From positions 1 to 37,401 of IMG/VR virus record IMGVR_UViG_3300017909_005256: a stretch of 37,401 nt of DNA, one strand, 5' to 3'. A program made the position numbers and the translations under genes. This DNA comes from a virus. Lineage: Duplodnaviria > Caudoviricetes. Shown here one piece after another: positions 7,520 through 24,207 of the stretch. A model generated the notes under the pieces. The model was given only the letters and a program-made list of their open reading frames with translations, was not told the origin of the DNA and made no database searches. Numbering within the stretch: position 1 is the stretch's first letter; every line of letters starts with the position of its first letter.

Positions 7520-7710
7520 TGGAAACTATAACTATAGACGGAAAAGAATATGAAGTAGAGCATTTGGAAGATAGTCAAAAAGCTATCGTTCAAGCTCTAA
7601 ACTATTGCTCTGTAAAAATTGATGAGACAAAACATCAACTAGCTGCGTTAGAAACAGCGAAGCAGGCATATATTAATGACTTAGGAAATCAACTAAAAGA
7701 GGATAGCTAA
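7516..7710 (+). CDS. small coiled-coil hypothetical protein (resembles DUF6447-type 'ITIDGKEY' proteins)
   Basis: 64 aa; ITIDGKEY N-terminus plus heptad helix; coupled to neighbours by ATGA and TAATG overlaps. Confidence 0.65.
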   Translation: MMETITIDGKEYEVEHLEDSQKAIVQALNYCSVKIDETKHQLAALETAKQAYINDLGNQLKEDS

Positions 7711-8369
7711 TGAAAATATTTATTGGGTATGAAGAAGAATATCCAGAAATGTTTGAGGTATGTAAAGAATCAATACTTCGTTACAATAGTAATCATGAGA
7801 TAATACCTCTAAGAAAATCTAAGTTAGAAAACGATGGGGTTTACTGGAGAGCATTTCAAGGTGAAAGCACAGATTTTGCTTTTACTCGCTTTCTAGTACC
7901 TTATCTATGTAATTATGAGGGCAATGCCCTATTTTGTGATGGAGACTTTCTTTGGTATTGTGATCCCGAAGAAATTAAAGATTGGGTAGATGATGAAGCA
8001 GTTTCATGCGTTCAACATCCTTGGCTAGTTTTTGAAGAGCATCGCAAAATGAAAGATAAAACAAATAGACCGTATAAACGAAAATATTGGTCTAGTCTTA
8101 TGTATTTTAATAATACAAAATGTAAAACGCTAACAAAAGAAGCAGTTAGTGTACGTAATGCCGCATGGCTACACGAAATGGATTGGGCGGAGTCAGTGGG
8201 TAGTATACCTGCTATATACAACGCTATGATAAACTATTATGACTTTAGTATAAAAGCTAAAGCAGTTCATTTTACTGATGGTGGCCCTTGGCTTGATATT
8301 AACGATAATTTACTATATAGTTCAGAATGGATAAAAATTTACAACAACTTACTGAAAACAAAAATATAA
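7710..8369 (+). CDS. GT-A fold nucleotide-diphospho-sugar glycosyltransferase (CDI-like / GT8-related)
   Basis: KIFIGY, STDFAFTRFLVPYL, DxD motif (FCDGDFL), RKYWSSLMYFN, VHFTDGGPW. Confidence 0.85.
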   Translation: MKIFIGYEEEYPEMFEVCKESILRYNSNHEIIPLRKSKLENDGVYWRAFQGESTDFAFTRFLVPYLCNYEGNALFCDGDFLWYCDPEEIKDWVDDEAVSCVQHPWLVFEEHRKMKDKTNRPYKRKYWSSLMYFNNTKCKTLTKEAVSVRNAAWLHEMDWAESVGSIPAIYNAMINYYDFSIKAKAVHFTDGGPWLDINDNLLYSSEWIKIYNNLLKTKI

Positions 8370-8992
8370 TAATTGTAGGAAATTCAGTAGAGATTCTACG
8401 ATATAAAAAAGGTGACTTTATAGATTCATTTGATACAGTTGTTCGACTAGGAAAAGGAATACCTGAAGATAGAGTGTATGAAAATATTGGTCGAAAATTT
8501 GATATTTGGGTTACTACTTGGTTACGAATAAAAATGAATAAATTTGTGCCTAAGCATACCTATGCTTTATTCAATGAATCAAGATGGAATCTTGACTACC
8601 ATCCACCCAATGAAAGAATACCCGAAGATAGAGAATTTCATAGTATGTTTAGTTTAGAAGAATATCAAGAACTTAGAAAAGAATGTGGAACTAAAGAAGG
8701 GTGGAAAAAAGCTGGAGAAAGACCTTCAAATGGATATGTTGCAATAAAATATTTTTTAAATAAATGTAATTGTAAGAGTATCACTCTAATTGGGTTTGAT
8801 TTTTTCAGTAAGAAGTTGCCCTTCAAAGCAGGGAGTGATTATCCATCAAGTTGGCATATCCCAATGAATACTGCTGAAGGGGCTATTCATGCTCCAAAAG
8901 AAAAAGAGCTAGTGTTAAAACTACATGAAGAAGGAAAGGTAAACTTAATTCAACTATCTAATTTAGATGAAGAATTTTTAAAGTTTACCTAA
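8327..8992 (+). CDS. GT29 sialyltransferase-like protein
   Basis: Sialylmotif-L-like IIIVGNS..L....G.FIDSFDTVVR, sialylmotif-S-like PSNGYVAIKYFLNKCNCKSITLIGFDFF, late His..Glu resembling motif VS. Confidence 0.72.
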   Translation: MDKNLQQLTENKNIIIVGNSVEILRYKKGDFIDSFDTVVRLGKGIPEDRVYENIGRKFDIWVTTWLRIKMNKFVPKHTYALFNESRWNLDYHPPNERIPEDREFHSMFSLEEYQELRKECGTKEGWKKAGERPSNGYVAIKYFLNKCNCKSITLIGFDFFSKKLPFKAGSDYPSSWHIPMNTAEGAIHAPKEKELVLKLHEEGKVNLIQLSNLDEEFLKFT

Positions 8993-9937
8993 CTTAAATC
9001 CTGTATCTAGTAAATTTTTACTTATATATTTCTGTTTTTCAGCTTTCAATAATAAATTTTCATTTATCGCTGCATCTCTAAAATTAACAGGAATACTATC
9101 AATCAAATCTGTATATAAATCCCAAGGAGTTGAGAGCTGAATAGAAGTTCTTAAGTTCTCATATTTAGCTGTCAAATACTGTGTGTCAATTTGTAAAGTC
9201 CATGCTTTTCTTAACATCTTATTATAGTTAAGACAATCTAGCGGGCCTAATGAATCATTTGTTACTAGATCATCTAGCTTACCATCTGCATAGACTGGCA
9301 TTTTTCCATGATTATATGTCATTAACATTTGCATAAATCTATCTGTTTTTGCATGTCTCAGTTGAGTATCTATATAAGGCTCATCTCCATTAACTGATGG
9401 TCGTTTTTCAAAAAATAAATCTTGATTTGGCATATGTTTTAACTTTTTCCAATTAAGTAAAAAGAAATTATCATTATACCTCCATCTTCCATCATTCATT
9501 TTATTGCCTTTAAAATTAATTCCTAAAATATTATAATATCCTTTGTAGTGTGGATGTTTTTCAAATTGATGATTAATAGATAGACTAGATAAAGATTTAA
9601 AAAATTCTTCGGGAGGTAGATTACCACCCTCTAATCTGCCTAAAAATATTCTAGGGCCATTTGCAAATACTATTCTTTTATTTAGTTCTCTTTTATTTTT
9701 CCACCACTCTTTCAAATGCAAAATTGTTTTTGCCTGTGAATGAGCCGTCCAACCTTTCCACGGCACTTGATATATCATTACGTCATTAAAATTATCAAGT
9801 ACCCATTTTACTTCTCTATCTCTCCAATGATCTTCGCTTATATATAAATGAAGTCTAAAGGGGTCAGTTTTATTCAATAGAGAAGCTAGAGTAAACATAC
9901 TCCATACGCGTTTATAATTATGTACTATTTCAACCAT
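8978..9937 (-). CDS. divergent GT8-like (GT-A) protein lacking a clear DxD
   Basis: N-terminal FTLASLLNK..FRLHLY, KRIVFANG where GT8 has KxlYLDxD, YNDNFFLLNWKKLK resembling GT8 YFNSGVLLiNLkkWR. Confidence 0.5.
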   Translation of the reverse strand: MVEIVHNYKRVWSMFTLASLLNKTDPFRLHLYISEDHWRDREVKWVLDNFNDVMIYQVPWKGWTAHSQAKTILHLKEWWKNKRELNKRIVFANGPRIFLGRLEGGNLPPEEFFKSLSSLSINHQFEKHPHYKGYYNILGINFKGNKMNDGRWRYNDNFFLLNWKKLKHMPNQDLFFEKRPSVNGDEPYIDTQLRHAKTDRFMQMLMTYNHGKMPVYADGKLDDLVTNDSLGPLDCLNYNKMLRKAWTLQIDTQYLTAKYENLRTSIQLSTPWDLYTDLIDSIPVNFRDAAINENLLLKAEKQKYISKNLLDTGFKLGKL

Positions 9938-10826
9938 TTATTACCTTATAATCCCAAAAGTTATCAAAATATGCTTGTAACCTTTCTTCTCGATCTTCAT
10001 CAAAATTAAATATTATACCAGAGTTTTTTGCAGATAAAATTCTATAAAGTTTTTTAATGCAATCGCCTCCAGTTATTGCTCCATAAATAGATTCATAAGT
10101 ACCAAGTGCTCTTTGTCTTTCAGATACAGGTTTAGTTATTAATCCTATTTTCTTACCTTTTAGTAAAGCCATAATACCCATTTCACTATTTTGCCCGCAA
10201 GCCATTTGCTTACAGTTCATAAGTAGTTCAAATCCACCTTCTTTTTTATTTAAAACATTTTCTTCACCGTATCTAAGTCTAAATTTTGCAATAAATAAAT
10301 GTGCTGTTATTGGATGAGGTTTTACTACATATCCATCTTTCATATATTGGTCGAATCTACGCCAATTTATACAGTTAGGATTTGATAATAAATTTGTTCC
10401 TGGTGGAAATACTACCTTATCGTAAAATTCTGTGTTCCATTGTAAACTATATTTGTTTTCTAAACAATTTATAATTTTTTCTATTCTCTCTTCATCGATC
10501 TTCATTGAATTATCATTTGCAATATATCGAAGAAGTTTATCATTAATTGGTAAAGAAGGAACTCTAAAGTATATTCCTCTACCAAGAAAATCTGTGTATA
10601 ACCATTTTCTCACTGTTCGAATTTCATTGGTGTTAAACCAAAGATCATACTGTACGTCAGAGTTTCTATACTGATTAGGTAAGATTTCTCTTAATTCTGA
10701 TAACTCATCTAATTGTCCTTTTGGTCTAAAACTAGACCCAGATTTCATAAAATGAGTTGCGACATCTCCCAGTGCTTCATTTATACTAAGTGCTGATAGT
10801 TTTTTAGTTGGTTTCTTTGCTACCAT
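9930..10826 (-). CDS. capsule polysaccharide synthesis KpsC/KpsS-like (GT-B) glycosyltransferase
   Basis: YVVKPHP motif followed by FELL..C....QNSEMGIMALLKGKKI, matching the KxHP...NSxxGxEALLxGKxV pattern of KpsC/KpsS-type transferases. Confidence 0.6.
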   Translation of the reverse strand: MVAKKPTKKLSALSINEALGDVATHFMKSGSSFRPKGQLDELSELREILPNQYRNSDVQYDLWFNTNEIRTVRKWLYTDFLGRGIYFRVPSLPINDKLLRYIANDNSMKIDEERIEKIINCLENKYSLQWNTEFYDKVVFPPGTNLLSNPNCINWRRFDQYMKDGYVVKPHPITAHLFIAKFRLRYGEENVLNKKEGGFELLMNCKQMACGQNSEMGIMALLKGKKIGLITKPVSERQRALGTYESIYGAITGGDCIKKLYRILSAKNSGIIFNFDEDREERLQAYFDNFWDYKVING

Positions 10827-10974
10827 TTCTTAACTCAAAAACTATTTTTTCTATATTTTTTAACCTTTCCTCTGTTTCTCCCAGAGTATCATATATCGCT
10901 GCCATCATACTTTCTAATTTTCCATTTAAGTAATCTGGACTTACATCTTTTTTTGTGCCAAATTCATTTGCCAT
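10804..10974 (-). CDS. small coiled-coil hypothetical protein (56 aa, not in ORF track)
   Basis: Read by hand: MANEFGTKKDVSPDYLNGKLESMMAAIYDTLGETEERLKNIEKIVFELRNGSKETN; starts 2 nt after the giant ORF's stop and overlaps the next gene, exactly filling the gap. Confidence 0.7.
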   Translation of the reverse strand: MANEFGTKKDVSPDYLNGKLESMMAAIYDTLGETEERLKNIEKIVFELRNGSKETN

Positions 10975-10976
10975 TT

Positions 10977-13900
10977 TTAGTTTGTTTCACTCCATTGTGA
11001 GCCATCCCAGTAGGAGAATCCAAAGTCAGAAGCGCTTGAAACTTCTGTATTGAATAGTGTACCTGCAGAGCTGGCTGTTACTCGTTCAAATATTGTTGTT
11101 TGCGTTGAGAAAGTTGTAGTTGTAAGTGCGCCAGTGGCAACCGTAGTATCAGTTGATTTACTTGTTTCAAAAGTTGTAGTTGTTGTTGTACCTCTTGAAG
11201 AGGAAGTAGATATAGTTGTTTCAAATGTAGTTGTTGTACCAACTGCAGTATCTGTAGTTGTAGTTGTTTCAATTGTTGTGTCTGTGGCTCTTGTAGTTAA
11301 AGTAGCTTGAGAGGTATCTGTATCTTGTGATGTCTCGAATGTAGTTGTTGTACTTTGAGAAGTATCCGTACCTCTACTTGTTTCTGTACCTTGAGATGTT
11401 GCAAATGTAGTTGTTGTAGATTGACTTGTATCTGTTGATCTGCTAGTATCTGTATCTTGAGCTGTTTCAAATATAGTAGTTGTACCTCTATTTGTTTCTG
11501 TAGCTCTAGATGTTGCAACAACAGATGATGTTTCAAATGTGGATACAGTATTAATTGTAGTATCAGTGCTTCTAGTTGTAAGAGTATCAAATACAGTATC
11601 AAATGCTGTAGTTGTAGACTGACTTGTATCTGTGCTTCGAGATGTTTCTGTACCTTGGGATGTTTCAAATGTAGTTACTGTGGCTACAACAGATATTGTA
11701 TTTCTGCTTGTTGCTGTATCATCAGTTGTCTCAAATCCAGTTACTGTACTCTTAGAAGTTGCAGTATCTTGACTTGTTTCTGTAGATTGAGTTGTTTCAA
11801 ATACAGTTGCTGTACTTTGAGTTGTGTCTGTTCCTCTACTTGTGCCTGTATCTTGCGTAGTATTAAATGTTGTAGTTGTGCTTTGTGTAGTATCAGTGCC
11901 TCTAGTTGTTTCTGTGCCTTGTGATGTTTCAAAGGTTGTGCTAGTAGATTGAGTAGTGGCAGTACTTCGAGAGCTTGCTGTCGATTGATCGGTTTCAAAA
12001 GTTGTAGTTGTTGACTGAGTTGTAGCAGTATCTCTCGAAGTAGCTGTTCCTTGTGAGGTATCATATACAGTTGATGTAGATTGTGATGTAGATGTATCTC
12101 TAGAACTTGATGTAGACTGATCTGTTTCAAATGTTGTAGTTGTATTTTCTGTTGTATCAGTTGATCTAGTTGTTTCTGTACCCTGTGATGTTTCAAATGT
12201 AGTTACAGTAGCTACAACAGATATAGTATTTCTGCTTGTTTCTGTATCAGCACTTGTTTCAAATCCAGTTACTGTATTCCTAGAAGTATCTGTGCCTCTG
12301 CTTGTTTCTGTGCCTTGAGACGTTGCAAATGTTGTAGTTGTACTTTGTGTTGTAGCTGTGCTTCTTGAGCTTCCTGTAGACTGATCTGTTTCAAATGTTG
12401 TAGTTGTACTTTGAGTTGTGTCTGTTCCTCTACTTGTTTCTGTACCCTGTGATGTTTCAAATGTAGTTACAGTAGACTGTGTTGTAGCTGTGTCTCTAGA
12501 GCTTGATGTAGATTGGTCTGTATCAAATATGGTTGTAGTATTTTTTGATGTAGAAGTGTCTCTTGATGTTGCTGTACCTTGGTCTGTTTCATATGTTGTA
12601 ACAGTAGATTTTGATGTTGATGTACTTCTCGAACTTCCAGTAGACTGATCTGTATCAAAAGTTGTTGTTGTAGACTGCGATGTAGAAGTGTCTCTTGATG
12701 TTGCTGTACCTTGGTCTGTTTCATATGTTGTAACAGTAGATTTTGATGTAGTAGTGCCTCTAGAACTGCCAGTAGCCTGGTCTGTGTCAAAAGTAGTAGT
12801 AGTAGATTGGCTAGTGTCTGTACCTCTTGAAGTTTCAGTACCTTGTGATGTCTCAAAGGTAGTGGTTGTACTCTGTGATGTATCAGTACTTCTAGAAGTT
12901 CCAGAAGCTCTACTTGTATCAAATGTCGTAGTTGTGCTTTGTGTTGTGTCTGTTCCTCTACTTGTTTCTGTACCCTGTGATGTTGCGAATACAGTAGTGG
13001 TAGATTTAGATGTAGATGTATCTCTGCTTGAAGCAGTAGATTGATCTGTATCAAAAGTTGTTGTTGTATTTCTTGAAGTTAAAGTTGCTCTTGATGTAGC
13101 AGTACCTTGTGATGTTTCAAATGTAGTTACAGTAGACTGTGTTGTAGCTGTATTTCTTGATGTTGCTGTATCTTGTGTTGTATTAAATACTGTGTCGGTG
13201 CTTTGAGTTGTATCTGTTGTTCTACTTGTTGCTGTGCCTTGATCTGTTTCAAATGTAGTTGTTGTAGATTGACTTGTATCTGTTGATCTACTTGTACCTG
13301 TTGCTTGATTAGTATTAAATGTAGTACTTGTACTTTGTGTTGTGTCTGTTGTCCTACTTGTTGCTGTGCCTTGATCTGTTTCAAATGTAGTAACAGTAGA
13401 TTTTGAAGTTGCTGTACTTCTTGAGCTTCCTGTAGACTGATCTGTATCAAAAGTTGTAGTTGTAGACTGGGATGTATCAGTAGCTCTTGATGTTGCTGTA
13501 CCTTGATCTGTTTCAAATGTAGTTACTGTTGCTTTTGAAGTTGCAGTACTTCTAGAGCTTCCTGTGGACTGATCTGTTTCAAATGTTGTTGTTGTGTCTT
13601 GAGAAGTATCAGTAGCTCTTGAAGTTGCTGTACCCTGTGATGTCTCAAAGGTAGTAGTTGTAGCTTTTGAAGTTGCAGTATCTCTACTTGTACCTGTTGT
13701 TTGAGTTGTATTAAATATTGTAGAAGTAGTTCTACTTGTACCTGTTGCTCTTGAACTTGCTCTAGAAGTAATAAATGCTGTTTCAAATGTTGTTGTTTGT
13801 GAGGTATTTGTACTTTGTGCTGTATTTGTACTAAATGCTGTTGTTGTATTAAATGTTGTAGTTGTACCTGTGTTTGTACTTTGTGTTGTAGTTTCTGTAA

Positions 13901-16900
13901 ATGTTGTAGTTGTGCCTGTATTATAAACAGTTGTAGTTGTAAATGTAGTACTTGTAGTTGTATTTGTACCTTGTGCGGTACTTTCAATAAATGTTGTATC
14001 AGTAGCAAATGTTGTAGTTGTATCAAATACTGTTGAAGTAGTTGTATTTGTAGCTTGAGCTGTACTTTCAATAAATGTTGTATCTGTTTCAAAAGCTGTA
14101 GTTGTAGCAAATGTAGAAGTTGTATTAGTATTTGTACCTTGTGCTGTACTTTCAATAAAGGATGTATCTGTATCAAAAGTTGTTGTTGTATCAAATGTAG
14201 AAGTTGTATTAGTATTTGTACCTTGTGCTGTATTTGTTCCTTGTGAAGTACTTGTGTTTGTTCCTTGAGTTGTACTTTCGTTAAATGTAGTTGATGTAGC
14301 TGTATTTGTACTCTGTGATGTTCCTGTAGTTTGAGATGTGCTTGTATTTGTACCTTGAGTAGTTGAAGCATCAAATGTAGTTGTAGTGCTTGTATTTGTA
14401 CTCTGTGATGTTCCAGTAGTTTGAGATGTACTTGTATTTGTACTCTGAGTAGTTGCAGCATCAAATGTAGTTGTAGTACTTGTATTTGTACCTTGAGCTG
14501 TAGCTGTTGACTGAGCTGTGCTAGTGTTTGTACCTTGAGTTGTGCTTTCGTTAAAGGTAGTTGTAGTACTTGTATTTGTACCTTGAGCTGTAGCTGTTGA
14601 CTGAGCTGTACTTGTATTTGTACTCTGAGTAGTTGCAGCATCAAATGTAGTTGTAGTACTTGTATTTGTACCTTGAGCTGTATTTGTTGCCTGTGATGTA
14701 TTTGTACTTGTAGATGTGTTTGTACCTCTACTTGTTCCCTGAGATGTATTTGTACTTGTACTTGTGTTTGTGCCTTGTGCTGTAGCTGTTGACTGAGCTG
14801 TACTTGTATTTGTAGACTGTGTTGTACTTGCAACAAATGTAGTGTTTGTAGCTGTATTTGTACCTTGAGATGTATTTGTTCCTCTACTACTTACTGTATT
14901 TGTACCTTGAGCTGTATTTGTTGATTGAGCTGTACTTGTATTTGTCGACTGTGTTGTATTCTCATTAAATGTTGTATTTGTACCTGTATTTGTATTATTT
15001 GTAAAGCTCGTTGTAGTACTTGTATTTGTCGACTGTGTTGTATTCTCATTAAATGTTGTATTTGTGCCTGTATTTGTATTATTTGTAAAGCTTGTTGTAG
15101 TATTTGTATTTGTAGACTGTGTTGTACTCTCATTAAATGTTGTAGTTGTACCTGTATTTGTATTATTTGTAAAGCTCGTTGTAGTATTTGTATTTGTATT
15201 ATTTGTAAAGGCAGTTGTATACGTAGTTGTTGTACCTGTGTTTGTATTATTTGCAAAAGCAGTTGTATACGTGGTTGTTGTACCTGTGTTTGTATTGTTT
15301 GTGAAGGCAGTTGTATACGTAGTTGTTGTACCTGTATTTGTATTGTTTGTTTGAGATGTACTTGCAACAAATGTAGTGTTTGTAGCTGTGTTTGTAGCCC
15401 GTGATGTTAAATAAGTAGTTGTTGTACCAGTGTTTGTATTGTTTGTTTGAGATGTACTTGCAACAAATGTAGTGTTTGTACCTGTGTTTGTATTGTTTGT
15501 AAAGGTGGTATTTCTAACAAATACAGTATCTCTCTCCGCAATCGTGTTACGGCTTGTATTTGTACTTGTAGATGTGTTTGTACCTCTACTTGTTTGCTCT
15601 GGTTGCTGAATGGTAGTTCCAAATTCAGGGCAGAAGAAGCTAGTATTTGTAAAATAAACTGTTGTTGTGCCTGTGTTTGTATTGTTTGTAAAGCTGGTAG
15701 TTCTGTTAAACTCAGTTTCAGTTTGAACTGTGGTATTTCTTGACGTATTTGTACTTGTACTTGTGTTTGTACCTTGAGTTGTATTTTCATTAAATGAAGT
15801 ATTTGTACTTGTACTTGTGTTTGTACCTCTACTTGTATTAAAAAATGTAGCTGTAACTGTATTTGTTCCTTGTGTTGTACTTTCATTAAATGAAGTATTT
15901 GTACTTGTACTTGTGTTTGTACCTCTACTTGTACCTCGAGCTGTATTTGTGCTTGTACTTGTATTTGTACCTCTACTTGTGCCTTGAGATGTATTTGTAC
16001 TTGTACTTGTGTTTGTAGCTCTACTTGTACCTCGAGCTGTATTTGTACTTGTACTTGTATTTGTTGCCTGTGATGTATTTGTACTTGTAGATGTATTTGT
16101 GCCTTGAGATGTACCTGCTGTAAATGTAGTGTTTGTAGCTGTATTTGTAGCCTGAGATGTATTTGTACTTGTACTTGTGTTTGTACCTTGAGTTGTACTT
16201 GCAACAAATGTAGTATTTGTTGCTGTATTTGTAGCCTGAGATGTATTTGTGCTTGTACTTGTATTTGTACCTTGAGTTGTACTTGCTACAAATGTAGTGT
16301 TTGTTACTTGATTGAATGTTGTAGTTGTAGTAAAAGTAGTTGTTGTACCAGTATTATAATTTGTGTTTGTTGTAAATGTTGTAGTTGTAGCTGTATTTGT
16401 ACTCTGTGTTGTATTTTCATTAAATGTAGTATCTGTTGCTTCATTGAATGTTGTAGTTGTAGCAAAAGTAGTTGTTGTACCTGTATTTGTATTATTTGTA
16501 AATGCAGTTGTATAAGCAGTTGTTGTACCTGTATTTGTATTGTTTGTAAAGCTCGTTGTTGTAGTAAAAGTAGTTGTTGTACCTGTATTTGTTGACTGAG
16601 CTGTACTCTCAATAAATGTAGTATCTGTTGCTTGTAAGAACGTTGTAGTTGTAGCAAAGGTAGTTGATGTACCTGTGTTTGTTGACTGAGCTGTACTTGC
16701 TACAAATGTAGTATCTGTTGCTTGTAAGAATGTTGTAGTTGTAGCAAAAGTAGTTGTTGTGCCTGTATTTGTTGATTGAGCCGTACTCTCAATAAATGTA
16801 GTATCTGTTGCTTGTAAGAACGTTGTAGTAGTATTAAATGCAGTTGTCGTATTTGTATTTGTTGACTGAGCTGTACTCTCAATAAATGTAGTATCTGTTG

Positions 16901-19900
16901 CCTGTAAGAACGTTGTAGTAGTATTAAATGCAGTTGTTGTATTTGTATTTGTTGATTGTGTAGTGCTTGCCGTAAATGTTGTAGTTGTACCAGTATTAAA
17001 TGTAGTTGTAGTTGTAAATGTTGTAGTTGTACCAGTAGTTGTAGATTGAGCTGTACTTGTGCTTTGTGCTGTATTTGTAGACTGCGTTGTGCTAGCATCA
17101 AACGTTGTAGTTGTACCAGTAGTTGTGGATTGAGCTGTATTTGTACTTTGCGCTGTATTAGTTGATTGTGTTGTTCCAGCATCAAATGTAGTTGTAGTGC
17201 CTGTATTTGTGCTTTGTGCTGTACTTGTACTTTGTGCTGTGTTGGTTGATTGTGTTGTTGAGGCATCAAATGTTGTAGTTGTACCTGTGTTTGTACTTTG
17301 CGAAGTATTTGTTGAATCCGAGGTACTGGTATTTGTACCTTGAGATGTACCTGCTGTAAATGTAGTGCTTGTTGCTGTATTTGTTCCTTGTGCTGTACTT
17401 GTTGTTTGTGATGTTGTAGTTGTAAATATTGTAGTTGTAGCAAATGTTGTAGTTCTACTTGTACTAATTACAGTATCAAATGAGGTTGTATATGCTGTTG
17501 TAGTATCAAACTCTGTTGTAGTGTCCCTGTTTGTTTCAAAAGTTGTAGTTGTACTATATGCTGTTGTAGTATTAAATATAGTCGTTGTATTTTTTGATGT
17601 ATTAAATGTAGTAGTTGTTGTATAAGCTGTTGTAGTGCTAAATACGGTTGTTGTATTTTGAGTTGTATTAAATGTTGTTGTAGTTGTATATGCTGTAGTT
17701 GTATTAAATACAGTTGTAGTATTTTGAGTAGTATTAAATGTAGTTGTTGTTGTATAAGCTGTTGTAGTACTAAATACAGTTGTCGTATTTTGAGTTGTTT
17801 CAAAAGTTGTTGTTGTGGTGTATGAAGTTGTAGTGTTAAATACTGTTGTTGTATTTCGTGTAGTATTAAATGTAGTTGTAGTTGTATACGCTGTTGTTGT
17901 ACCAAAAGTCGTAGTCGTATTTCTGCTAGTCTCAAAGGTAGTTGTAGTTGTATACGCTGTAGTGGTTGTAAATACAGTTGTAGTATTTTGAGTAGTATTA
18001 AATGTAGTTGTTGTTGTGTAAGCTGTTGTTGTGCCAAAAGTTGTAGTAGTGCTTTGTGTAGTATTAAATGTTGTTGTAGTGTTAAATGTTGTGGTTGTAT
18101 TAAATGTTGTTGTTGTATTTTGTGTAGTATTAAATGTAGTTGTTGTTGTGTAAGTTGTGGTTGTATTAAATGCAGTAGTTGTATTTTGGGTTGTCTCAAA
18201 TGTTGTAGTAGTAGTAAACTGAGTAGTTGTATTAAATGTAGTTGTAGTAGACTGACTAGTATTAAATGTGGTGGTGGTATTAAATGCAGTTGTAGTTGTA
18301 AATGTAGTAGTTGTATTCTGGGTTGTCTCAAATGTTGTTGTAGTATCGTATGAAGTGGTTGTTGCAAATACTGTTGTTGTACTTTTTGTCGTATTAAATG
18401 TTGTAGTGGTATTAAATGCTGTTGTAGTCGTAAATGTAGTAGTTGTATTCTGAGTTGTTTCAAATGTAGTTGTAGTAGTATATGCAGTTGTAGTTGTAAA
18501 CTGAGTTGTTGTATTTTGTGTAGTATTAAATGTAGTTGTAGTTGTATATGCTGTAGTTGTATTAAATGTAGTAGTTGTATTCTGTGTTGTTTCAAACGTA
18601 GTTGTTGTGGTAAATTGAGTTGTAGTATTAAACACAGTTGTAGTAGACTGACTAGTATTAAATGTGGTTGTAGTTGTATATGCTGTTGTAGTATTAAATG
18701 TAGTTGTAGTATTTTGTGATGTAGCAAATGTTGTAGTTGTGGTAAATTGAGTTGTAGTATTAAATGTAGTAGTTGTACCCTGAGTTGTATTAAATGTAGT
18801 AGTTGTGTTAAATGCAGTTGTAGTTGTAAATGTAGTAGTTGTATTTTGAGTAGTGTTAAATGTTGTAGTTGTGTTAAATTGAGTTGTAGTATCAAAAGTA
18901 GTTATTGTACTCTGAGTTGTATTAAATGTAGTTGTTGTATTAAAAGCTGTAGTTGTTTCAAAAGTAGTTACTGTTGTTTGCCCTGTATTAAACGTAGTTG
19001 TTGTATTAAAGGTTGTTGTTGTTGTAAAGTTTGTAGTTGTATTTTGAGTTGTATTAAATGTAGTTGTAGTTGTAAATGCTGTGGTAGTTGCCACTGATGT
19101 AGTAGTGCTTTGTGTAGTATTAAATGTAGTTGTTGTTGTAAACTGAGTTGTAGTATTAAATACAGTTGTGGTATTTGTATTAGTTTCAAATGTTGTAGTT
19201 GTAGCGAACTCTGTAGTTGTATTAAATGTTGTTGTAGTACTCTGAGTCGTATTAAATGTAGTTGTTGTTGTAAACTGAGTTGTAGTATTAAAGGTTGTAG
19301 TAGTGTCTTGGCTAGTATTAAATGTTGTAGTTGTGTTAAAAGTTGTTGTAGTTGTAAATGTTGTTGTAGTACTTTGAGTTGTATTAAATGTAGTAGTTGT
19401 GTTAAATGCTGTTGTAGTTGTAAACGTTGTAGTTGTATTTTGAGTTGTATTAAATGTTGTAGTAGTATTAAATGCTGTAGTTGTATTAAACGTAGTTGTA
19501 GTTGTTTGTCCTGTATTAAATGTAGTTGTAGTATTAAATGTAGTTGTTGTTGTAAAGTTTGTGGTTGTACCCTGAGTAGTGTTAAAAGTTGTGGTAGTTG
19601 TAAATGCTGTTGTTGTACTAAATACAGTTGTTGTGTTTGTGCTAGTTTCTACAGTTGTTTGTGTAGTGAACTCTGTTGTTGTTGTAAAAGCAGTTTCTAC
19701 AGTTTCAGTTGTATTAAACGTAGTAGTTGTATCAAATGTTGTAGTTGTTTCAAAAGTTGTAACTGTACTCTGAGTTGTATTAAAGGTTGTACTAGTGGTA
19801 AATGTAGTTGTAGTACTAAATGTTGTTGTAGTGTTTTGAGTTGTATTAAATGTTGTTGTTGTGTTAAATGCTGTTGTAGTTGTAAATGTTGTAGTTGTGC

Positions 19901-20303
19901 CTTGAGTTGTATTAAAGGTTGTACTTGTTGTAAAAGTAGTTGTAGTTGTAAACTCAGTTGTGGTACTAAATGCAGTTTCAAAAGCTGTTGTTGTAGCTAT
20001 TGCGGTATCTGTTGCTGCTGCTGTATTGAACGAAGTGTCAGTAGAATATAATGTGGTTGTAGTTGTACTTTGTGTAGTATTAAATGTAGTAGTTGTGGTA
20101 AAAGCTGTTTCTTGTACTCCAGATATAGTTGAGGTAGAAGTGTCGGTATTTCTTGATGTAGTTTCTACGACTGTAAAAGGCCCTGCGAGTGCTCCGCCAT
20201 CGTTTACATATACCTCATTGATTCTTCTAAGAGTTCCGCTATCATTAACCGCCAAATAACTGACTTGTCTAAGCGTACCACTATTATTAACATAAATTGC
20301 CAT
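10977..20303 (-). CDS. giant 3108-aa Thr-rich repeat protein, putative virion fibre; predicted self-complementary beta-hairpin
   Basis: Single 9.3-kb ORF with variable third codon positions; short unique head (YVNNSGTLR-type repeats) and tail (FGFSYWDGSQW); Thr-rich arms with mirrored aromatic vs R/Q/K spacing; lies in the fibre operon. Confidence 0.88.
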   Translation of the reverse strand: MAIYVNNSGTLRQVSYLAVNDSGTLRRINEVYVNDGGALAGPFTVVETTSRNTDTSTSTISGVQETAFTTTTTFNTTQSTTTTTLYSTDTSFNTAAATDTAIATTTAFETAFSTTTEFTTTTTFTTSTTFNTTQGTTTTFTTTTAFNTTTTFNTTQNTTTTFSTTTTFTTSTTFNTTQSTVTTFETTTTFDTTTTFNTTETVETAFTTTTEFTTQTTVETSTNTTTVFSTTTAFTTTTTFNTTQGTTTNFTTTTTFNTTTTFNTGQTTTTTFNTTTAFNTTTTFNTTQNTTTTFTTTTAFNTTTTFNTTQSTTTTFTTTTTFNTTTTFNTSQDTTTTFNTTTQFTTTTTFNTTQSTTTTFNTTTEFATTTTFETNTNTTTVFNTTTQFTTTTTFNTTQSTTTSVATTTAFTTTTTFNTTQNTTTNFTTTTTFNTTTTFNTGQTTVTTFETTTAFNTTTTFNTTQSTITTFDTTTQFNTTTTFNTTQNTTTTFTTTTAFNTTTTFNTTQGTTTTFNTTTQFTTTTTFATSQNTTTTFNTTTAYTTTTTFNTSQSTTTVFNTTTQFTTTTTFETTQNTTTTFNTTTAYTTTTTFNTTQNTTTQFTTTTAYTTTTTFETTQNTTTTFTTTTAFNTTTTFNTTKSTTTVFATTTSYDTTTTFETTQNTTTTFTTTTAFNTTTTFNTSQSTTTTFNTTTQFTTTTTFETTQNTTTAFNTTTTYTTTTTFNTTQNTTTTFNTTTTFNTTTTFNTTQSTTTTFGTTTAYTTTTTFNTTQNTTTVFTTTTAYTTTTTFETSRNTTTTFGTTTAYTTTTTFNTTRNTTTVFNTTTSYTTTTTFETTQNTTTVFSTTTAYTTTTTFNTTQNTTTVFNTTTAYTTTTTFNTTQNTTTVFSTTTAYTTTTTFNTSKNTTTIFNTTTAYSTTTTFETNRDTTTEFDTTTAYTTSFDTVISTSRTTTFATTTIFTTTTSQTTSTAQGTNTATSTTFTAGTSQGTNTSTSDSTNTSQSTNTGTTTTFDASTTQSTNTAQSTSTAQSTNTGTTTTFDAGTTQSTNTAQSTNTAQSTTTGTTTTFDASTTQSTNTAQSTSTAQSTTTGTTTTFTTTTTFNTGTTTTFTASTTQSTNTNTTTAFNTTTTFLQATDTTFIESTAQSTNTNTTTAFNTTTTFLQATDTTFIESTAQSTNTGTTTTFATTTTFLQATDTTFVASTAQSTNTGTSTTFATTTTFLQATDTTFIESTAQSTNTGTTTTFTTTTSFTNNTNTGTTTAYTTAFTNNTNTGTTTTFATTTTFNEATDTTFNENTTQSTNTATTTTFTTNTNYNTGTTTTFTTTTTFNQVTNTTFVASTTQGTNTSTSTNTSQATNTATNTTFVASTTQGTNTSTSTNTSQATNTATNTTFTAGTSQGTNTSTSTNTSQATNTSTSTNTARGTSRATNTSTSTNTSQGTSRGTNTSTSTNTARGTSRGTNTSTSTNTSFNESTTQGTNTVTATFFNTSRGTNTSTSTNTSFNENTTQGTNTSTSTNTSRNTTVQTETEFNRTTSFTNNTNTGTTTVYFTNTSFFCPEFGTTIQQPEQTSRGTNTSTSTNTSRNTIAERDTVFVRNTTFTNNTNTGTNTTFVASTSQTNNTNTGTTTTYLTSRATNTATNTTFVASTSQTNNTNTGTTTTYTTAFTNNTNTGTTTTYTTAFANNTNTGTTTTYTTAFTNNTNTNTTTSFTNNTNTGTTTTFNESTTQSTNTNTTTSFTNNTNTGTNTTFNENTTQSTNTSTTTSFTNNTNTGTNTTFNENTTQSTNTSTAQSTNTAQGTNTVSSRGTNTSQGTNTATNTTFVASTTQSTNTSTAQSTATAQGTNTSTSTNTSQGTSRGTNTSTSTNTSQATNTAQGTNTSTTTTFDAATTQSTNTSTAQSTATAQGTNTSTTTTFNESTTQGTNTSTAQSTATAQGTNTSTTTTFDAATTQSTNTSTSQTTGTSQSTNTSTTTTFDASTTQGTNTSTSQTTGTSQSTNTATSTTFNESTTQGTNTSTSQGTNTAQGTNTNTTSTFDTTTTFDTDTSFIESTAQGTNTNTTSTFATTTAFETDTTFIESTAQATNTTTSTVFDTTTTFATDTTFIESTAQGTNTTTSTTFTTTTVYNTGTTTTFTETTTQSTNTGTTTTFNTTTAFSTNTAQSTNTSQTTTFETAFITSRASSRATGTSRTTSTIFNTTQTTGTSRDTATSKATTTTFETSQGTATSRATDTSQDTTTTFETDQSTGSSRSTATSKATVTTFETDQGTATSRATDTSQSTTTTFDTDQSTGSSRSTATSKSTVTTFETDQGTATSRTTDTTQSTSTTFNTNQATGTSRSTDTSQSTTTTFETDQGTATSRTTDTTQSTDTVFNTTQDTATSRNTATTQSTVTTFETSQGTATSRATLTSRNTTTTFDTDQSTASSRDTSTSKSTTTVFATSQGTETSRGTDTTQSTTTTFDTSRASGTSRSTDTSQSTTTTFETSQGTETSRGTDTSQSTTTTFDTDQATGSSRGTTTSKSTVTTYETDQGTATSRDTSTSQSTTTTFDTDQSTGSSRSTSTSKSTVTTYETDQGTATSRDTSTSKNTTTIFDTDQSTSSSRDTATTQSTVTTFETSQGTETSRGTDTTQSTTTTFETDQSTGSSRSTATTQSTTTTFATSQGTETSRGTDTSRNTVTGFETSADTETSRNTISVVATVTTFETSQGTETTRSTDTTENTTTTFETDQSTSSSRDTSTSQSTSTVYDTSQGTATSRDTATTQSTTTTFETDQSTASSRSTATTQSTSTTFETSQGTETTRGTDTTQSTTTTFNTTQDTGTSRGTDTTQSTATVFETTQSTETSQDTATSKSTVTGFETTDDTATSRNTISVVATVTTFETSQGTETSRSTDTSQSTTTAFDTVFDTLTTRSTDTTINTVSTFETSSVVATSRATETNRGTTTIFETAQDTDTSRSTDTSQSTTTTFATSQGTETSRGTDTSQSTTTTFETSQDTDTSQATLTTRATDTTIETTTTTDTAVGTTTTFETTISTSSSRGTTTTTTFETSKSTDTTVATGALTTTTFSTQTTIFERVTASSAGTLFNTEVSSASDFGFSYWDGSQWSETN
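11150..13740 (-). repeat. 22-aa (66-bp) degenerate repeats of the C-terminal arm, consensus about TTTTFETxQxTxTSRxTxTx(Q/K)S
   Basis: Repeated units such as TTTTFETDQSTGSSRSTATSKA; boundaries approximate. Confidence 0.85.
17500..20100 (-). repeat. 22-aa (66-bp) degenerate repeats of the N-terminal arm, consensus about TTTTFNTTQNTTTTFNTTTx(F/Y)T
   Basis: Repeated units such as TTTTFNTTQSTTTTFNTTTQFT; boundaries approximate. Confidence 0.85.
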
Positions 20304-20326: not shown

Positions 20327-20548
20327 TTAGCTTGAGTATACAAACCAGATATGACCGTCACTTGTACCAGTCGTATCAGTCGGGGCAGTTGTTGTTATTG
20401 TAAAAGGTAATCTACCACTATCAATAGTACCAGATCCAATTTTATCTGAAGCAACTGACCCTTCAAAGTTTCTGGTTGCATCAATAACGTCCGAGCCGTC
20501 AATCTTTAAACCAGAATCTTCGATATTAAAATCTAACTTTTGTCCCAT
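20327..20548 (-). CDS. small tail-fibre-associated protein
   Basis: 73 aa ending TITTTAPTDTTGTSDGHIWFVYSS, a 'ApS...dGdiW' segment typical of phage fibre modules; lies between two fibre-like genes. Confidence 0.65.
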   Translation of the reverse strand: MGQKLDFNIEDSGLKIDGSDVIDATRNFEGSVASDKIGSGTIDSGRLPFTITTTAPTDTTGTSDGHIWFVYSS

Positions 20549-20550
20549 TT

Positions 20551-23241
20551 CTATACCTCTAATGTAGTTCTTATAAACTTGTACGCCATAGTGTCTGTAC
20601 TTGCTGGCGTTACTCTTAATCTTACATTACCACTATCTATATCTGCGTCAAAAGTCGCTTGCGCTCCATTATCAAATATAGATGCGTACTGTGTTAAATA
20701 AACTGTTGATCCATCATGAAACAAAAATATTTCTATTGAATGATAATCTCCATCTGTGGAGTTTACAATTTGAACTATATATTTTGCTGTTCTAAATGTT
20801 GTTGCACTATATGAATCAAGTGTAAATTGTGCTGTTGATGAAGAACTTCCTGTACCTACATCAAATCCAGCAACTTCATCTATATGAAGTTTTTGTGGCG
20901 GTGCTGAATCTTGAATACCTAGTAAACCTGCAACATTTACTTCATCGGAAGTACCATCACCTAAGTCTATATTTCCAGAGAATGTAACATCCCCACTAAA
21001 TGTTTGTCCGCTTAATGCACCACTTGCTAATTCACTTGTTCCAATGCTGTTTGCTGCTATTTCTGAACTGCCTACTGCATTTGCTTGAATTTTTGCCGCT
21101 GTAACTGAGTTACCTGCTAGTTGATTAGTATTAATTAAACCATCTGTAATATATGCGGCACTATCAATAGCGTTATCAGCTATTTTAGCGCTAGTTACAG
21201 AATCAGAAGCTAAATGTATAGCATCTATTGATCCTGATACTAACTCTGCAGAGTCTACTGAGTTTTGAGCTATTTGAGTACTACCAACTGCGTTACCTGC
21301 TATTTCTGAAGAGCCTATTGCATTTGCGGATATTTCTGAACTACCTACAGCATTTCCTGCTATCTTGGTTGCTACTACTGAATTTGCTGCTAAATGTATA
21401 GCATCTATTGATCCTGATACTAACTCTGCAGAGTCTACTGAGTTTTGAGCTATTTGAGTTGAGCCCACAGCATTACCAGCTATTTCTGAAGAACCGACAA
21501 CATTTTCCGCTATTTTAGCTGCTGTTATAGAATTGTCTGATAAATGAATAGTATCTATTGATCCTGATACTAACTCTGCAGAGTCAACGCTATTAGCAGC
21601 TATCTCTGCACTACCAACAGCGTTTCCTGCAATATGTCTTGCAACTACTGCGTTACTTGCTAGTTTAGTAGCATCTATTGAGTTATCAGCTATTTTTGCT
21701 GTAGTGATAGTGTTATCGGCAATATCAGCTGCAACAATAGTTCCATTTACTATTTTTGCTGAAGTAACAGAATTATCTGCTATTGCTGATGCAGTACCTG
21801 TTAAATTACCTGTAATGTCGCCTTCTATATCTGCTACAAGAACTGCTTTTTCATAACTAGCTGCTTCTGTATTTACTGTGGAAGTTGGTTGTGTTGTTAA
21901 GTTTTTAAATAATTTAAACTTTCCACTATCTGATGCATCTCTGAATAATCCTGTATATTCGTCTTGAGAGCCACTATCATCGTAGACTCCATAAAATCCA
22001 ATATCAATTGCATCGCTTGATGTATTGTTGTTTGCTAGTTCAAGTAATGAATCATTCATTGTAATAGTCGTTGCCGAAGCAATAAAACTAGAACCAGAGA
22101 CTGTTACATCTCCTGAGAATGTTACATTACCTGTAAATGTTTGTCCTGAAAGAGCGCCACTTGCCAGCTCACTTGAGCCAACAGCGTTTTCAGCTAGCTC
22201 TGCACTATCAACAGCATTTCCAGCTATTTCAGCTGATCCTACAGCATTGCCAGCTATTTCAGCTGCTCCTACGGCATTGCCAGCTATTTCCGCTGATCCT
22301 ACAGCATTTGCTGCTATAGTTTCTGCTATTACTGAATTACTCGCTAATTTTGCATTTGTAACTGCATTATCTTGTATTTTTGCGGTTATGACTGAATCAG
22401 AAGCTAAATGTATAGCATCTATACTGCCTGTAACTAATTCGCTGGAATCTACTGAATTTTCAGCAAGTTCTGAACTACCTACTGCATTTGCAGCTATATC
22501 TCCTGCTACAACAGCATTTCCTGCTATTTTTCCTGAAGTTACTGAATTATCTGCAAGATGAATAGTATCTATACTACCTGTAACTAATTCACTACTATCA
22601 ACCGAATTTTCAGCAAGTTCTGAACTACCTACTGCATTTGCCGCTAGTTGTGTTGAAGTAACAGCGTTTCCTGCTATTTCTGCACTATCAACAGCATTAG
22701 CAGCTATTTTAGCTGATGTAACTTGATTGTCTGATATTGTGATAGCTCCATCAGCGATTTGAACTCCTGTAACTGCATTTGCAGCTATCTCTGAACTGTC
22801 TACTGAGTTTGCTGATATTTCTGCACTTCCAACAGCATTTCCAGCTATCTGTGTAGAAGTAACAGCGTTTCCTGCTATTTCTGAACTATCTACTGAATTT
22901 TCCGCTAGTGAACTTGAAGTAACTGAGTTTGTTGCAAGTTTTGCTGATGTTACTGCTGCTGAGTCTAACTCTGAAGTGCCTACTGCACCTGCTGCGATTT
23001 CTGCGCTACCTACCGCGTTTGCTGCTATAGCTGCTGAATCAATAGAATTATCTCCAACTGAAGTAACCGCTGTACCTTGTAACTGTGCTGATCCTACAGC
23101 ATTTGTTGCTATTTCTGATGATGTAACAGAGTTTTCTGCTAGTTCCGCACTATCAATTGCATTATTAGCAACTTTTGCCGCTGTTACTGCGTTTTCACCT
23201 AAAGCAACATCTTGTACTAAAATTTTTCCAATTAATGGCAT
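20551..23241 (-). CDS. tail fibre / virion structural protein with decapeptide repeats
   Basis: Dozens of (A/G)xN(A/S)V(G/T/D)SxE(I/L) 10-aa repeats interrupted by a globular insert (DSLLELANNN..DIGFYG) and ending in a beta domain (FRTAKYIVQI...GNVRLRVTP) of a kind seen in aquatic phage structural proteins. Confidence 0.75.
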   Translation of the reverse strand: MPLIGKILVQDVALGENAVTAAKVANNAIDSAELAENSVTSSEIATNAVGSAQLQGTAVTSVGDNSIDSAAIAANAVGSAEIAAGAVGTSELDSAAVTSAKLATNSVTSSSLAENSVDSSEIAGNAVTSTQIAGNAVGSAEISANSVDSSEIAANAVTGVQIADGAITISDNQVTSAKIAANAVDSAEIAGNAVTSTQLAANAVGSSELAENSVDSSELVTGSIDTIHLADNSVTSGKIAGNAVVAGDIAANAVGSSELAENSVDSSELVTGSIDAIHLASDSVITAKIQDNAVTNAKLASNSVIAETIAANAVGSAEIAGNAVGAAEIAGNAVGSAEIAGNAVDSAELAENAVGSSELASGALSGQTFTGNVTFSGDVTVSGSSFIASATTITMNDSLLELANNNTSSDAIDIGFYGVYDDSGSQDEYTGLFRDASDSGKFKLFKNLTTQPTSTVNTEAASYEKAVLVADIEGDITGNLTGTASAIADNSVTSAKIVNGTIVAADIADNTITTAKIADNSIDATKLASNAVVARHIAGNAVGSAEIAANSVDSAELVSGSIDTIHLSDNSITAAKIAENVVGSSEIAGNAVGSTQIAQNSVDSAELVSGSIDAIHLAANSVVATKIAGNAVGSSEISANAIGSSEIAGNAVGSTQIAQNSVDSAELVSGSIDAIHLASDSVTSAKIADNAIDSAAYITDGLINTNQLAGNSVTAAKIQANAVGSSEIAANSIGTSELASGALSGQTFSGDVTFSGNIDLGDGTSDEVNVAGLLGIQDSAPPQKLHIDEVAGFDVGTGSSSSTAQFTLDSYSATTFRTAKYIVQIVNSTDGDYHSIEIFLFHDGSTVYLTQYASIFDNGAQATFDADIDSGNVRLRVTPASTDTMAYKFIRTTLEV
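21209..21459. repeat. 71-bp identical direct repeat (21209-21279 and 21389-21459)
   Basis: gctaaatgtatagcatctattgatcctgatactaactctgcagagtctactgagttttgagctatttgagt occurs twice, 180 bp apart, with a partial third copy near 21550. Confidence 0.85.
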
Positions 23242-23578: not shown

Positions 23579-23869
23579 TTATCCCAATGCTATTGCAAAA
23601 GCAAGTATATCTGCTTCAGTTGCAAATCGTCCTTCTACGTTTGCAGGAGTAAATGTAAATACACCAGCATTGTCGTATGTTAAACTACCATTTCCACTTG
23701 CTGTTGCAGTCGTTACACTAAAATCTGTTAATGCAGCAGAATCACCTGAGGGAATTGCTGATGATATTGTAAGTGTAGTCGTATTGCTCGTGGCTGTAAT
23801 TGTCGTAGTATTAGGAGTAATAGTTAATTTATTATTATCACTAGGAGTAATAATTAATTTGGTAGCCAT
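23579..23869 (-). CDS. small fibre-associated protein ending in AFAIALG
   Basis: 96 aa; GNGSLTYDNAGVFTFTP fibre-type segment; TAATG coupling to the upstream gene. Confidence 0.6.
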   Translation of the reverse strand: MATKLIITPSDNNKLTITPNTTTITATSNTTTLTISSAIPSGDSAALTDFSVTTATASGNGSLTYDNAGVFTFTPANVEGRFATEADILAFAIALG

Positions 23870-24207
23870 TATCGTGTAACTTCTTGTGTGACTCTTGCAA
23901 CGCCTTGAATTAGTCTAGTAACAGTATTTGCACTTGTATTTACTAGCTCTAAATCGTAAAAATATTTTCCTGCAGTTACGTTTGTAGTTGTACCGTGACC
24001 CAATTCCATTTTTAAAATGCCATTTGCAGAGTCAGTTATAGTACAAGTAAAATCTGCTGTTTTTGTGTCTGAATTAAGAGTTGGGCGCAGTTGTGCTCGT
24101 GCTGAATGTGTACTTAAATTCACATTTGCACCATCTTGTTCTACTTGAATTTGTATTGAAAAAGTCGATCCCTGATCGATTACGATATCATACGTTCCTG
24201 CCGCCAT
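23869..24207 (-). CDS. T5 p132/LtfC-like collar protein (Ig/BppU-like fold) anchoring lateral fibres
   Basis: DIVIDQG, VNLSTHSARAQLR, DFTCTITDSANGILKMEL, YFYDLEL and RLIQGVARVTQEVTR match the recalled p132/BppU-N pattern; AGGAG RBS at 24215-24219. Confidence 0.7.
   Translation of the reverse strand: MAAGTYDIVIDQGSTFSIQIQVEQDGANVNLSTHSARAQLRPTLNSDTKTADFTCTITDSANGILKMELGHGTTTNVTAGKYFYDLELVNTSANTVTRLIQGVARVTQEVTR

Follow-up and report, generated by a model that had tools for sequence, protein, structure and literature searches.

A mirror-coded, threonine-rich protein of a T5-like marine phage, predicted to fold back into a very long two-stranded beta-ribbon fibre

The window analysed here comprises all 37,401 nucleotides (nt) of the IMG/VR virus record IMGVR_UViG_3300017909_005256 (Duplodnaviria; Caudoviricetes) and carries, on its minus strand, a gene for a protein of 3108 amino acids (aa) whose two halves are complementary about a central axis. 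When the chain is folded between F1561 and G1562, residues i and 3123-i face each other, and the aromatic residues of one arm are placed opposite Gln, Arg or Lys of the other. A preliminary description of the window had read this as one giant antiparallel hairpin. The antiparallel fold-back is held here with high confidence and is supported by every sequence test applied, e.g. a fixed end offset, paired insertions and deletions (indels), covariation and an axial turn. The hairpin protein is very probably a fibre of the virion, and the mechanism as a whole, in which a fibre made of a two-stranded antiparallel beta-ribbon is borne by the tail of a T5-like phage, is considered probable.

The coordinates and length of the open reading frame (ORF) agree with those first reported, and the gene is divided as follows.

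10977..20303, minus strand: mirror-coded Thr-rich protein gene (3108 aa), last large gene of the tail operon
20172..20303, minus strand: head, aa 1-44, three repeats of the Y-V-N-D-x-G-T-L-R type, conserved in relatives, putative attachment role
15639..20171, minus strand: outgoing arm, aa 45-1555, Thr, Phe, Gln, Tyr or Arg at even positions, small polar residues at odd positions
15603..15638, minus strand: tip, aa 1556-1567, with the turn C1558-P-E-F-G-T, most variable part of the family
11070..15602, minus strand: returning arm, aa 1568-3078, complementing the outgoing arm at i+j=3123
10977..11069, minus strand: C-terminal tail, aa 3079-3108, conserved, with a W-D-G motif, where the chain would return to the head

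Threonine accounts for 46% of the protein (1443 residues) and, together with 337 Ser, for 57%; no match was found in Pfam or PHROGs. His is absent, Cys occurs once (C1558), Trp twice (both among the final ten residues) and Pro at positions 42, 1559 and 1568, i.e. in the head and the central turn only, as had been noticed before. One face of the chain, the marker face, is made of Thr, Phe, Gln, Arg and Tyr in strict position alternation, and it is almost wholly avoided by Gly (0 of 103 residues), Asp (2 of 89) and Asn (12 of 240). A 22-residue period (6+6+6+4) spans aa ~114-930 and units of 28-32 residues occur further in; periods of 20, 22, 28, 30 and 32 are found within the chain and between relatives, and the alternation of faces is unbroken along ~1,480 residues. 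The marker spacings, described earlier as even, are so for the most part, but a minority are odd (1, 3, 5, 9, 13) because some Gln sit on the opposite face, and spacings of 2, 8 and 14 occur too. The codon bias of the gene also leaves other frames of the same strand open for up to 475 aa (11078-19981, minus strand), and several Vibrio records annotate shadow ORFs of this kind and miss the true short hairpin gene.

All 22 residue pairs listed in the preliminary description have the residues named there and sum to 3123, and the fold axis is equally exact, with the codon of F1561 ending at nt 15621 and that of G1562 starting at nt 15620. Comparison across registers gave 224 aromatic:Q/R/K pairs at 3123, the next values being 157 (+22) and 156 (-22), so that the enrichment proposed earlier was recovered. 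Regarding the partnered aromatics, 224 of 254 stand opposite Gln (150), Arg (63) or Lys (11), and 224 of 246 Gln, Arg and Lys residues stand opposite Phe or Tyr; all 224 pairs of marker with marker are unlike and none is like with like. When labels were shuffled among the marker positions, the mean was 112.6 and the maximum 132 (300 shuffles, best register taken each time). Block shuffles of the C-terminal arm (300 each, blocks of 1, 2, 22, 44 and 110) reached at most 161, versus 221 observed over residues 45-1555. A gapped alignment of arm on arm needed zero gaps, i.e. a single register extends over ~1,500 residues.

Within 100-residue segments, 3123 was the sole best register in 6 of 16 (41-140 and five of the six segments of 941-1540); it tied with two other registers in segment 1141-1240, and the last short segment was uninformative. 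In the periodic part (141-940, eight segments), 19-29 other registers tie with or beat 3123. The periodic part alone thus does not fix the register, because many registers tie there; the aperiodic inner and outer parts pick 3123, and therefore one shared register is fixed. The arms are not inverted repeats as DNA, in agreement with the preliminary description, and their best reverse-complement identity of 0.32 rules out a DNA-level inverted repeat as the source of the symmetry.

Relatives were collected from viral and metagenome contigs by scans based on the head and on genes next to the hairpin gene (two of those scans used the best 80 of 91 and the best 80 of 217 matches). A complete gene was present at 178 loci, which encode 107 distinct proteins of 592-1621 aa; the 3108-aa copy is about twice as long as the longest relative found. 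The preliminary description had proposed homologs of other lengths as a check on the symmetry, and it is kept in them by a fixed end offset: the best register, determined from the markers alone, minus the W-D-G position is 24 in 100 of 107 proteins, 22 in four and elsewhere in three, and 24 in the 3108-aa protein as well. The predicted meeting of both termini at the base is expressed in this offset. Among the 45 closest pairs of unequal length (pairs which share members), net indels are equal on both arms in 40, off by one residue in two and by 8-20 residues in three, the paired indels ranging from 4 to 42 residues; between L045 and L046, whose DNA is 98.4% identical, the difference is a single 42-residue block per arm. 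In an alignment of 43 sequences with register 767, covariation peaks at i+j of 763, 767 and 765 (0.044-0.054 versus a mean of 0 and a standard deviation of 0.008). Eight columns of swapped polarity in that alignment were not counted, as they lie mostly at unreliable positions (14-50% register-consistent). For relative L059, the antiparallel alignment scored 259 versus 89.5 for the parallel one.

Arm-on-arm alignment of 75 relatives showed one register held in 47, slips of 1-6 residues in 18 and jumps of at least 10 residues in ten. Eleven asymmetric relatives have a close symmetric partner; five (L085, L172, L197, L223, L092) differ from it solely by an indel with an exact flanking repeat of at most 20 nt, and the remaining ones have exact repeats of 24-83 nt at one junction or more. 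The imperfect members fit a growth by one-arm indels that would be matched later, and such indels are perhaps evolutionary intermediates, a reading partly confounded by assembly collapse. In the subfamily of L092, L094, L097-L102, L105 and L109-L112, the register slips by one residue per ~20, as regular beta-bulges would. Full-length members are absent from both large protein libraries searched, and a protein-homology search with the head region returned nothing near the lengths of the 3108-aa protein or the 752-aa relative L004.

The reality of the assembled gene was examined against public contigs of four runs from four studies. The best run, which may itself be the source, covers 30 of 30 bins in pieces with 0-8 differences; no single public contig piece spans the whole gene. 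Another gap in cover, over the tip bin in one run, was given no weight, and no RNA record was listed as carrying the gene. The sister contig L036 has the last 1181 residues in common, with 7 substitutions, and is without 30- and 44-residue blocks of the C-terminal arm, both at sites where the exact DNA repeats of the gene are longest (53-76 nt); its N-terminal arm lies beyond the contig end, and hence it carries no information on a paired deletion. The best argument for the assembly is the unbroken register of the arms, since an error on one arm would break it.

A near-central [DC]-P-E-x-G turn is carried by 20 relatives; it coincides with the axis (offset 0) in 11 of them and is displaced by one residue in the other 9. 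At axial turns the paired markers stand at an odd distance from the Asp (17 of 17), and by the chignolin/GB1 convention odd-distance sites are the non-hydrogen-bonded ones. Among 29 disjoint close pairs, 23 diverge most at the tip (mean identity 0.73 versus 0.91-0.96), a difference to be read with some reserve, gaps having been scored as mismatches in the tip and not in the arms, which lowers the tip value somewhat. Tips are enriched in Glu, Asp, Tyr and Gly.

Short versions were found in cultured phages through the homologs of g298, the transferase-like gene next to the hairpin gene; these homologs occur in KVP40-like Vibrio myophages, Caulobacter podophages, Cr30 and DLP6. Near the g298 homolog of the Vibrio phages lies a gene for 168-197 aa, whose product has a different head and a pair of arms of ~55 pairs in the same code. 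The number of label shuffles per 1000 that reached the observed score was 0 for 6E35.1a, 0 for D479, 3 for F86 and 17 for KVP40.0254; the Caulobacter proteins are weaker (25 for BL198, 223 for Lullwater). In three Vibrio versions two Cys flank the turn, and in all four of the other phages that were examined the Vibrio head module comes after genes for tail fibres. The annotated baseplate wedge protein AAY80_265 of DLP6 has 38 pairs in its C-terminal half (0 of 300 label shuffles). The short and long ribbons have the code in common while their heads differ, and they need not be of common descent. The virion proteome of 6E351A is silent on the hairpin and is uninformative, because the annotation, as given in the available part of the source, lists other small ORFs over the hairpin gene (PMC12028318). 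In the record of Caulobacter phage Quill_5.2 (L155 1855-2500) the Thr-rich gene shifts frame near its end. At the DLP6 record ends (L083 15860-18490, L081 1-1652) an unannotated long ORF, immediately upstream of the g298 homolog, spans the terminal repeat and, by eye, shows immunoglobulin (Ig)-like repeats and a Hint-like C terminus.

The 37.4-kb contig is that of a T5-like marine phage. Its minus strand encodes the tape measure, minor tail proteins, central fibre J, a p132-like collar and the side fibre, and its plus strand includes exonuclease, resolvase and ribonucleotide reductase genes. The hairpin gene closes the tail-fibre operon, after a separate tape-measure gene, and has these neighbours.

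20327..20548, minus strand: 73-aa gene directly upstream of the hairpin gene, candidate trimeric adaptor for the head
20551..23241, minus strand: 896-aa side tail fibre (phrog_892 tail fiber, E 8.6e-90)
23869..24207, minus strand: T5 p132-like L-shaped fibre assembly (collar) protein (phrog_3304, E 2.3e-13)
10804..10974, minus strand: 56-aa ORF between the hairpin gene and g298, no PHROGs match

In 34 of 35 loci found with the head, the 73-aa gene precedes the hairpin gene, the exception being a cut locus. Downstream, g298 follows in 30 of 30 loci reaching that far, and all four downstream genes are present in 28, two ending early. Small coiled-coil-like genes stand at the site equivalent to the interval between hairpin gene and g298 in KVP40 and DLP6. 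The head profile finds 253 proteins, mostly of 150-250 aa, with the module N-terminal; 51 of 53 scanned head-module proteins match phrog_13729, and four bear Ig-like or tail-fibre-assembly domains behind the head. A search of the ESM Atlas with the head gave scores of 0.80-0.82 to unnamed clusters. An adhesin-type attachment module at the base, with the tip receptor-facing, would suit these observations. In the genome contigs searched for the host, no relative of the head was found; the nearest cultured nrdA genes are those of pelagiphages (63-66%), by which the host is not given.

The genes downstream of the hairpin gene are the following.

9930..10826, minus strand: g298 (298 aa), predicted KpsS/KpsC/GT99-like transferase fold, from a model and a K-x-H-P motif
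8978..9937, minus strand: 319-aa gene adjoining g298, conserved, glycosyltransferase-like by eye alone
8327..8992, plus strand: GT29 (sialyltransferase-family) gene, convergent, position conserved (PF00777, E 3.7e-9)
7710..8369, plus strand: 219-aa gene, conserved (phrog_28018, function unknown), glycosyltransferase-like by eye alone

KpsS-like/GT99 and GT29 enzymes use acidic sugars activated by cytidine monophosphate (CMP). The GT29 gene reaches 36.8 bits with PF00777 versus a cut-off of 23, the profile being matched in part only. The ESM Atlas model of g298 has template-modelling (TM) scores of 0.63 to a KpsS-family cluster and 0.57 to GT99, and K-x-H-P is invariant in 12 of 12 aligned homologs. 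By predicted fold and motif, g298 may resemble the KpsC/KpsS (GT107) and GT99 beta-Kdo (3-deoxy-D-manno-octulosonic acid) transferases; it is unlike them in remaining below the family cut-offs and in being tied to Thr-rich proteins, across unrelated phages, and not to capsule synthesis. The 319-aa gene had no match in Pfam, NCBIfam or the PDB and the 219-aa gene no informative one; PDB sequence searches with the products of g298 and of the 319- and 219-aa genes and with the head gave nothing significant. A wider scan for g298 produced 80 loci, of which the 28 that are unlike the T5-like family or Lullwater itself were used: a Thr-rich ORF lies at most 720 nt upstream of g298 in 22, four have less than 1.7 kb of sequence upstream and two have no such ORF.

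Two further loci (L264 4314-6357, L269 4391-6362) encode Thr-rich fold-back proteins with another head type and a Cys-rich central insert, followed by a 169-aa gene and g298, which suggests that the ribbon may be used there as a stalk for a tip domain. In Vibrio phage 6E35.1a (L161 1662-5747) and in L082, an island that includes QueC-like, phosphoribosyltransferase, radical SAM and nucleotidyltransferase genes begins with the short hairpin gene and g298. The 6E35.1a island is labelled anti-defence in the available part of its report (PMC12028318); it could instead make a sugar donor. Extra DNA of ~1.3-2 kb occurs among the convergent transferase-like genes in L043-L056, L067-L073, L079, L025 and L027.

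In the mechanism proposed, the chain would run out for ~1,500 residues, turn at the Cys-Pro-Glu-Phe-Gly loop and zip back into a ribbon. On one face Thr would lie opposite Thr and, each 4-12 residues, Phe or Tyr opposite Gln, Arg or Lys, presumably in contact; these unlike pairs would serve as register marks, like base pairs, and prevent slipping or like-with-like pairing of a low-complexity strand. The other face would present Ser, Asn, Asp, Gly, Ala and Thr. The three-repeat head may attach the chain where the side-fibre assembly ends, tentatively to a trimer of the 73-aa protein, and it appears rather likely that the acidic, aromatic tip meets the host surface. Length would change by duplication or deletion of repeats on one arm, tolerated as a loop-out and later matched, as the asymmetric relatives suggest. 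That the KpsS-like and GT29 neighbours place CMP-activated acidic sugars on Thr and Ser of the hairpin is slightly favoured. On the virion the ribbon would likely act as a thin adhesin fibre of great length. The arm length of ~1,500 residues, from which the preliminary description had derived half a micrometre, was confirmed, and the 0.5 micrometre itself presumes full extension of the ribbon.

A number of results count against this proposal or parts of it. The structure prediction of the centre that had been recommended did not return the hairpin: single-sequence AlphaFold2 on aa 1372-1750 gave, at low confidence (predicted local distance difference test, pLDDT, of 42), strands of ~10 residues with turns. 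For the 752-aa relative L004 (43-sequence alignment) the pLDDT was 31.5 with mostly short strands and coil; the two longest strands of that model, 43-76 and 689-721, have ends that fit the register. As there is no confident model, the fold-back therefore rests on sequence and evolution. The likely turn C1558-P-E-F-G-T1563 has its own register, 3121, two off that of the arms, because of which the tip of the 3108-aa protein is irregular. Inner and outer registers differ by at least 10 in 15 of 107 relatives, and some relatives pair only ~40% of their aromatics at one register. Regarding the short versions, the mirror test is weak or fails for QD01_260 (83 of 1000 shuffles) and Lull_041 (223 of 1000). 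The exact family has no cultured member and none has been observed in a virion, and the head profile finds no PDB chain at E 10, i.e. no solved relative. Regarding glycosylation, g298 itself has no Pfam match and its family stays below the cut-offs (Lull_042 with Capsule_synth at 16.5 bits versus 20, KVP40.0256 with GT52 at 19.8 versus 26.1, KpsC 6mgb at E 0.8). Cr30 and L253 carry g298 with no Thr-rich neighbour within the 7 kb examined, nor in Cr30 a mirror-coded one, and among 14 distinct Thr-rich neighbours of g298 in distant loci the gapped mirror test is passed by five (at most 2 of 200) and weak or failed in nine, so that g298 tracks Thr-rich proteins more surely than hairpins. Enrichment of N-glycosylation sequons was rejected (Asn-x-Ser/Thr 0.67 versus Asp-x-Ser/Thr 0.64).

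Other objects could be built from the same halves. Three folded-back chains might intertwine as a needle of six strands, resembling the tip of T4 gp37 and turning the small-residue face inwards: one face of the 3108-aa protein holds small residues only, and in the available parts of the sources most tail fibres are trimers (PMC12143355) and the gp37 needle chains run out and back with both termini at the knob (PMC9603124). A barrel, however, would give each strand a second neighbour, and a single complementary register is found; the absence of His and the single Cys leave no metal core; and the three-repeat head, which heads small adhesin-like proteins elsewhere, would rather suit a single chain capping a trimer, all of which makes the needle unlikely. 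The ribbon might also coil up compactly, as a double-stranded beta-helix in which each 22-residue unit makes one turn, giving a fibre far shorter and thicker than 0.5 micrometre. The regular 6+6+6+4 period over 800 residues per arm and the ~10-residue strands with turns in the low-confidence single-sequence model speak for such winding, but it is improbable in view of an alternation unbroken for ~1,480 residues, varying periods, paired indels of 4-42 residues, and arms free of Pro and of any fixed turn motif.

Pairing between chains, the N-terminal arm of one with the C-terminal arm of another in an antiparallel domain-swapped dimer or polymer, is a reading from which complementarity by sequence cannot separate the intramolecular one; the tight hairpin-type turn, exactly axial in many relatives, and the Vibrio Cys pairs around the turn leave it a very small chance. 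An equally small chance is given to a real hairpin that is no external fibre and is instead internal or ejected (a ruler, or a DNA conduit of many hairpins) or acts in the infected cell. The family is known only from sequences and long beta-hairpins build tubes in other systems, but the location of the gene, last in the side-fibre operon and behind a distinct tape-measure gene, the adhesin-type head, the DLP6 baseplate wedge fusion, the variable tip and the lack of a hydrophobic face argue for the outside of the virion. A disordered mucin-like protein, with its symmetry a by-product of repeat expansion or mis-assembly, would match the Thr+Ser content of 57%, the low complexity, the low pLDDT and the lack of a public contig spanning the gene; it is hardly credible, since the symmetry recurs in >100 independently assembled relatives and chance is refuted by the shuffles and the paired indels. 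Matched indels on the two arms cannot come from an assembler or from slippage, given that the arms have no relation at the DNA level.

The design of the predicted two-stranded ribbon was not met with in the literature and structures searched. Known fibrous proteins are coiled coils, collagens, beta-helices, beta-spirals, cross-beta stacks and bead strings. The metal ligands in the gp37 needle are His. That needle (D10-D11) shares with the hairpin protein an out-and-back chain, both termini at the base, a receptor tip and a place at the end of a tail fibre (available text of PMC9603124), features predicted for the hairpin protein by sequence alone. It differs as a 20 nm interwoven trimer, whereas ~1,500 residues per arm would give ~0.5 micrometre, 25x its length; needles of this type hold metal ions (available text of PMC12028318), whereas His is absent from the 3108-aa protein. 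Searches of Pfam and PHROGs with the protein, and of the PDB with the head profile, gave no match to gp37 needle families. In the Trp-Arg ladder of thrombospondin type 1 repeats, as described in the accessible part of PMC6954052, aromatics stack on Arg of the neighbouring antiparallel strand in a thin coreless domain stabilised by glycosylation; these repeats are, however, eukaryotic, have ~60 residues, three strands and disulfides, and are strung head to tail, whereas the hairpin protein would be one continuous two-arm fold-back with Phe/Tyr against Gln/Arg/Lys and a polarity that switches. With two terminal Trp, one Cys and no Pfam match, the 3108-aa protein lacks the WxxWxxW motif and disulfides of that family.

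Chignolin, the GB1 hairpin and trpzip are short hairpins with cross-strand aromatic-cation and Thr-Thr pairs and an Asp-Pro-Glu-x-Gly turn. They share the turn type and the placing of aromatics, but have 10-16 residues versus 3,000 and no long-distance register code. The T2-type gp38 is a monomer. T2-type gp38 tip adhesins likewise have a small N-terminal attachment module, a variable receptor part and a gene directly after the fibre gene (available parts of PMC9603124 and PMC12143355); the hairpin protein differs in its phrog_13729-like head and in its body, a mirror-coded Thr ribbon instead of polyglycine helices or a beta-sandwich. Parallel beta-solenoid repeat proteins stack in the same direction and have no mirror halves, in contrast to the 224-pair mirror register and paired indels found here. 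In the accessible portion of the report on the hairy phage CBB no gene is named for the hairs (PMC5259590), and none of the RBPseg tail-fibre classes in the accessible portion of PMC12143355 resembles the hairpin protein. No description of such a protein was met in the literature searched, a scope that excludes most subscription papers and bioRxiv supplements.

If the reading is true, a two-stranded beta-ribbon of hundreds of nanometres with a readable pairing code would be a further kind of fibrous protein, would provide a simple design rule for protein rods of chosen length, and would show both how a low-complexity Thr-rich chain escapes mis-pairing and how distant, DNA-unrelated parts of a gene keep equal length. 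The broader view of a class of fibrous proteins resembling nucleic-acid stem-loops, with a side-chain pairing code, bulge intermediates, compensatory indels, an acidic-sugar coating system and varied virion anchors in sipho-, myo- and podophages, and with a single-chain fishing line of ~0.5 micrometre here, is given an even chance. For marine ecology a wider capture radius is suggested for phages of dilute hosts. Annotation has a blind spot for such proteins, with full-length members missing from large libraries and the short Vibrio ORF from several annotations; with the short versions that cultured phages carry, structure, place in the virion and glycosylation are within reach of direct experiment.

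Further genes of the window include an iscU/NifU-like gene within the tail operon (26401-26793, minus strand), a cytochrome c gene (2886-3317, plus strand) and a glutaredoxin-like ORF with C-P-Y-C, read by eye (3314-3538, plus strand). IscU-bearing marine phages have been tied to gammaproteobacteria, and one to SAR86, in the available part of PMC5332604; as to the host of the T5-like phage, SAR86 is no more than a lead. Central fibre J (26793-32411, minus strand) ends, at aa ~1320-1830, in short repeats rich in Ala, Asn and Ile (phrog_892), like the 896-aa side fibre.

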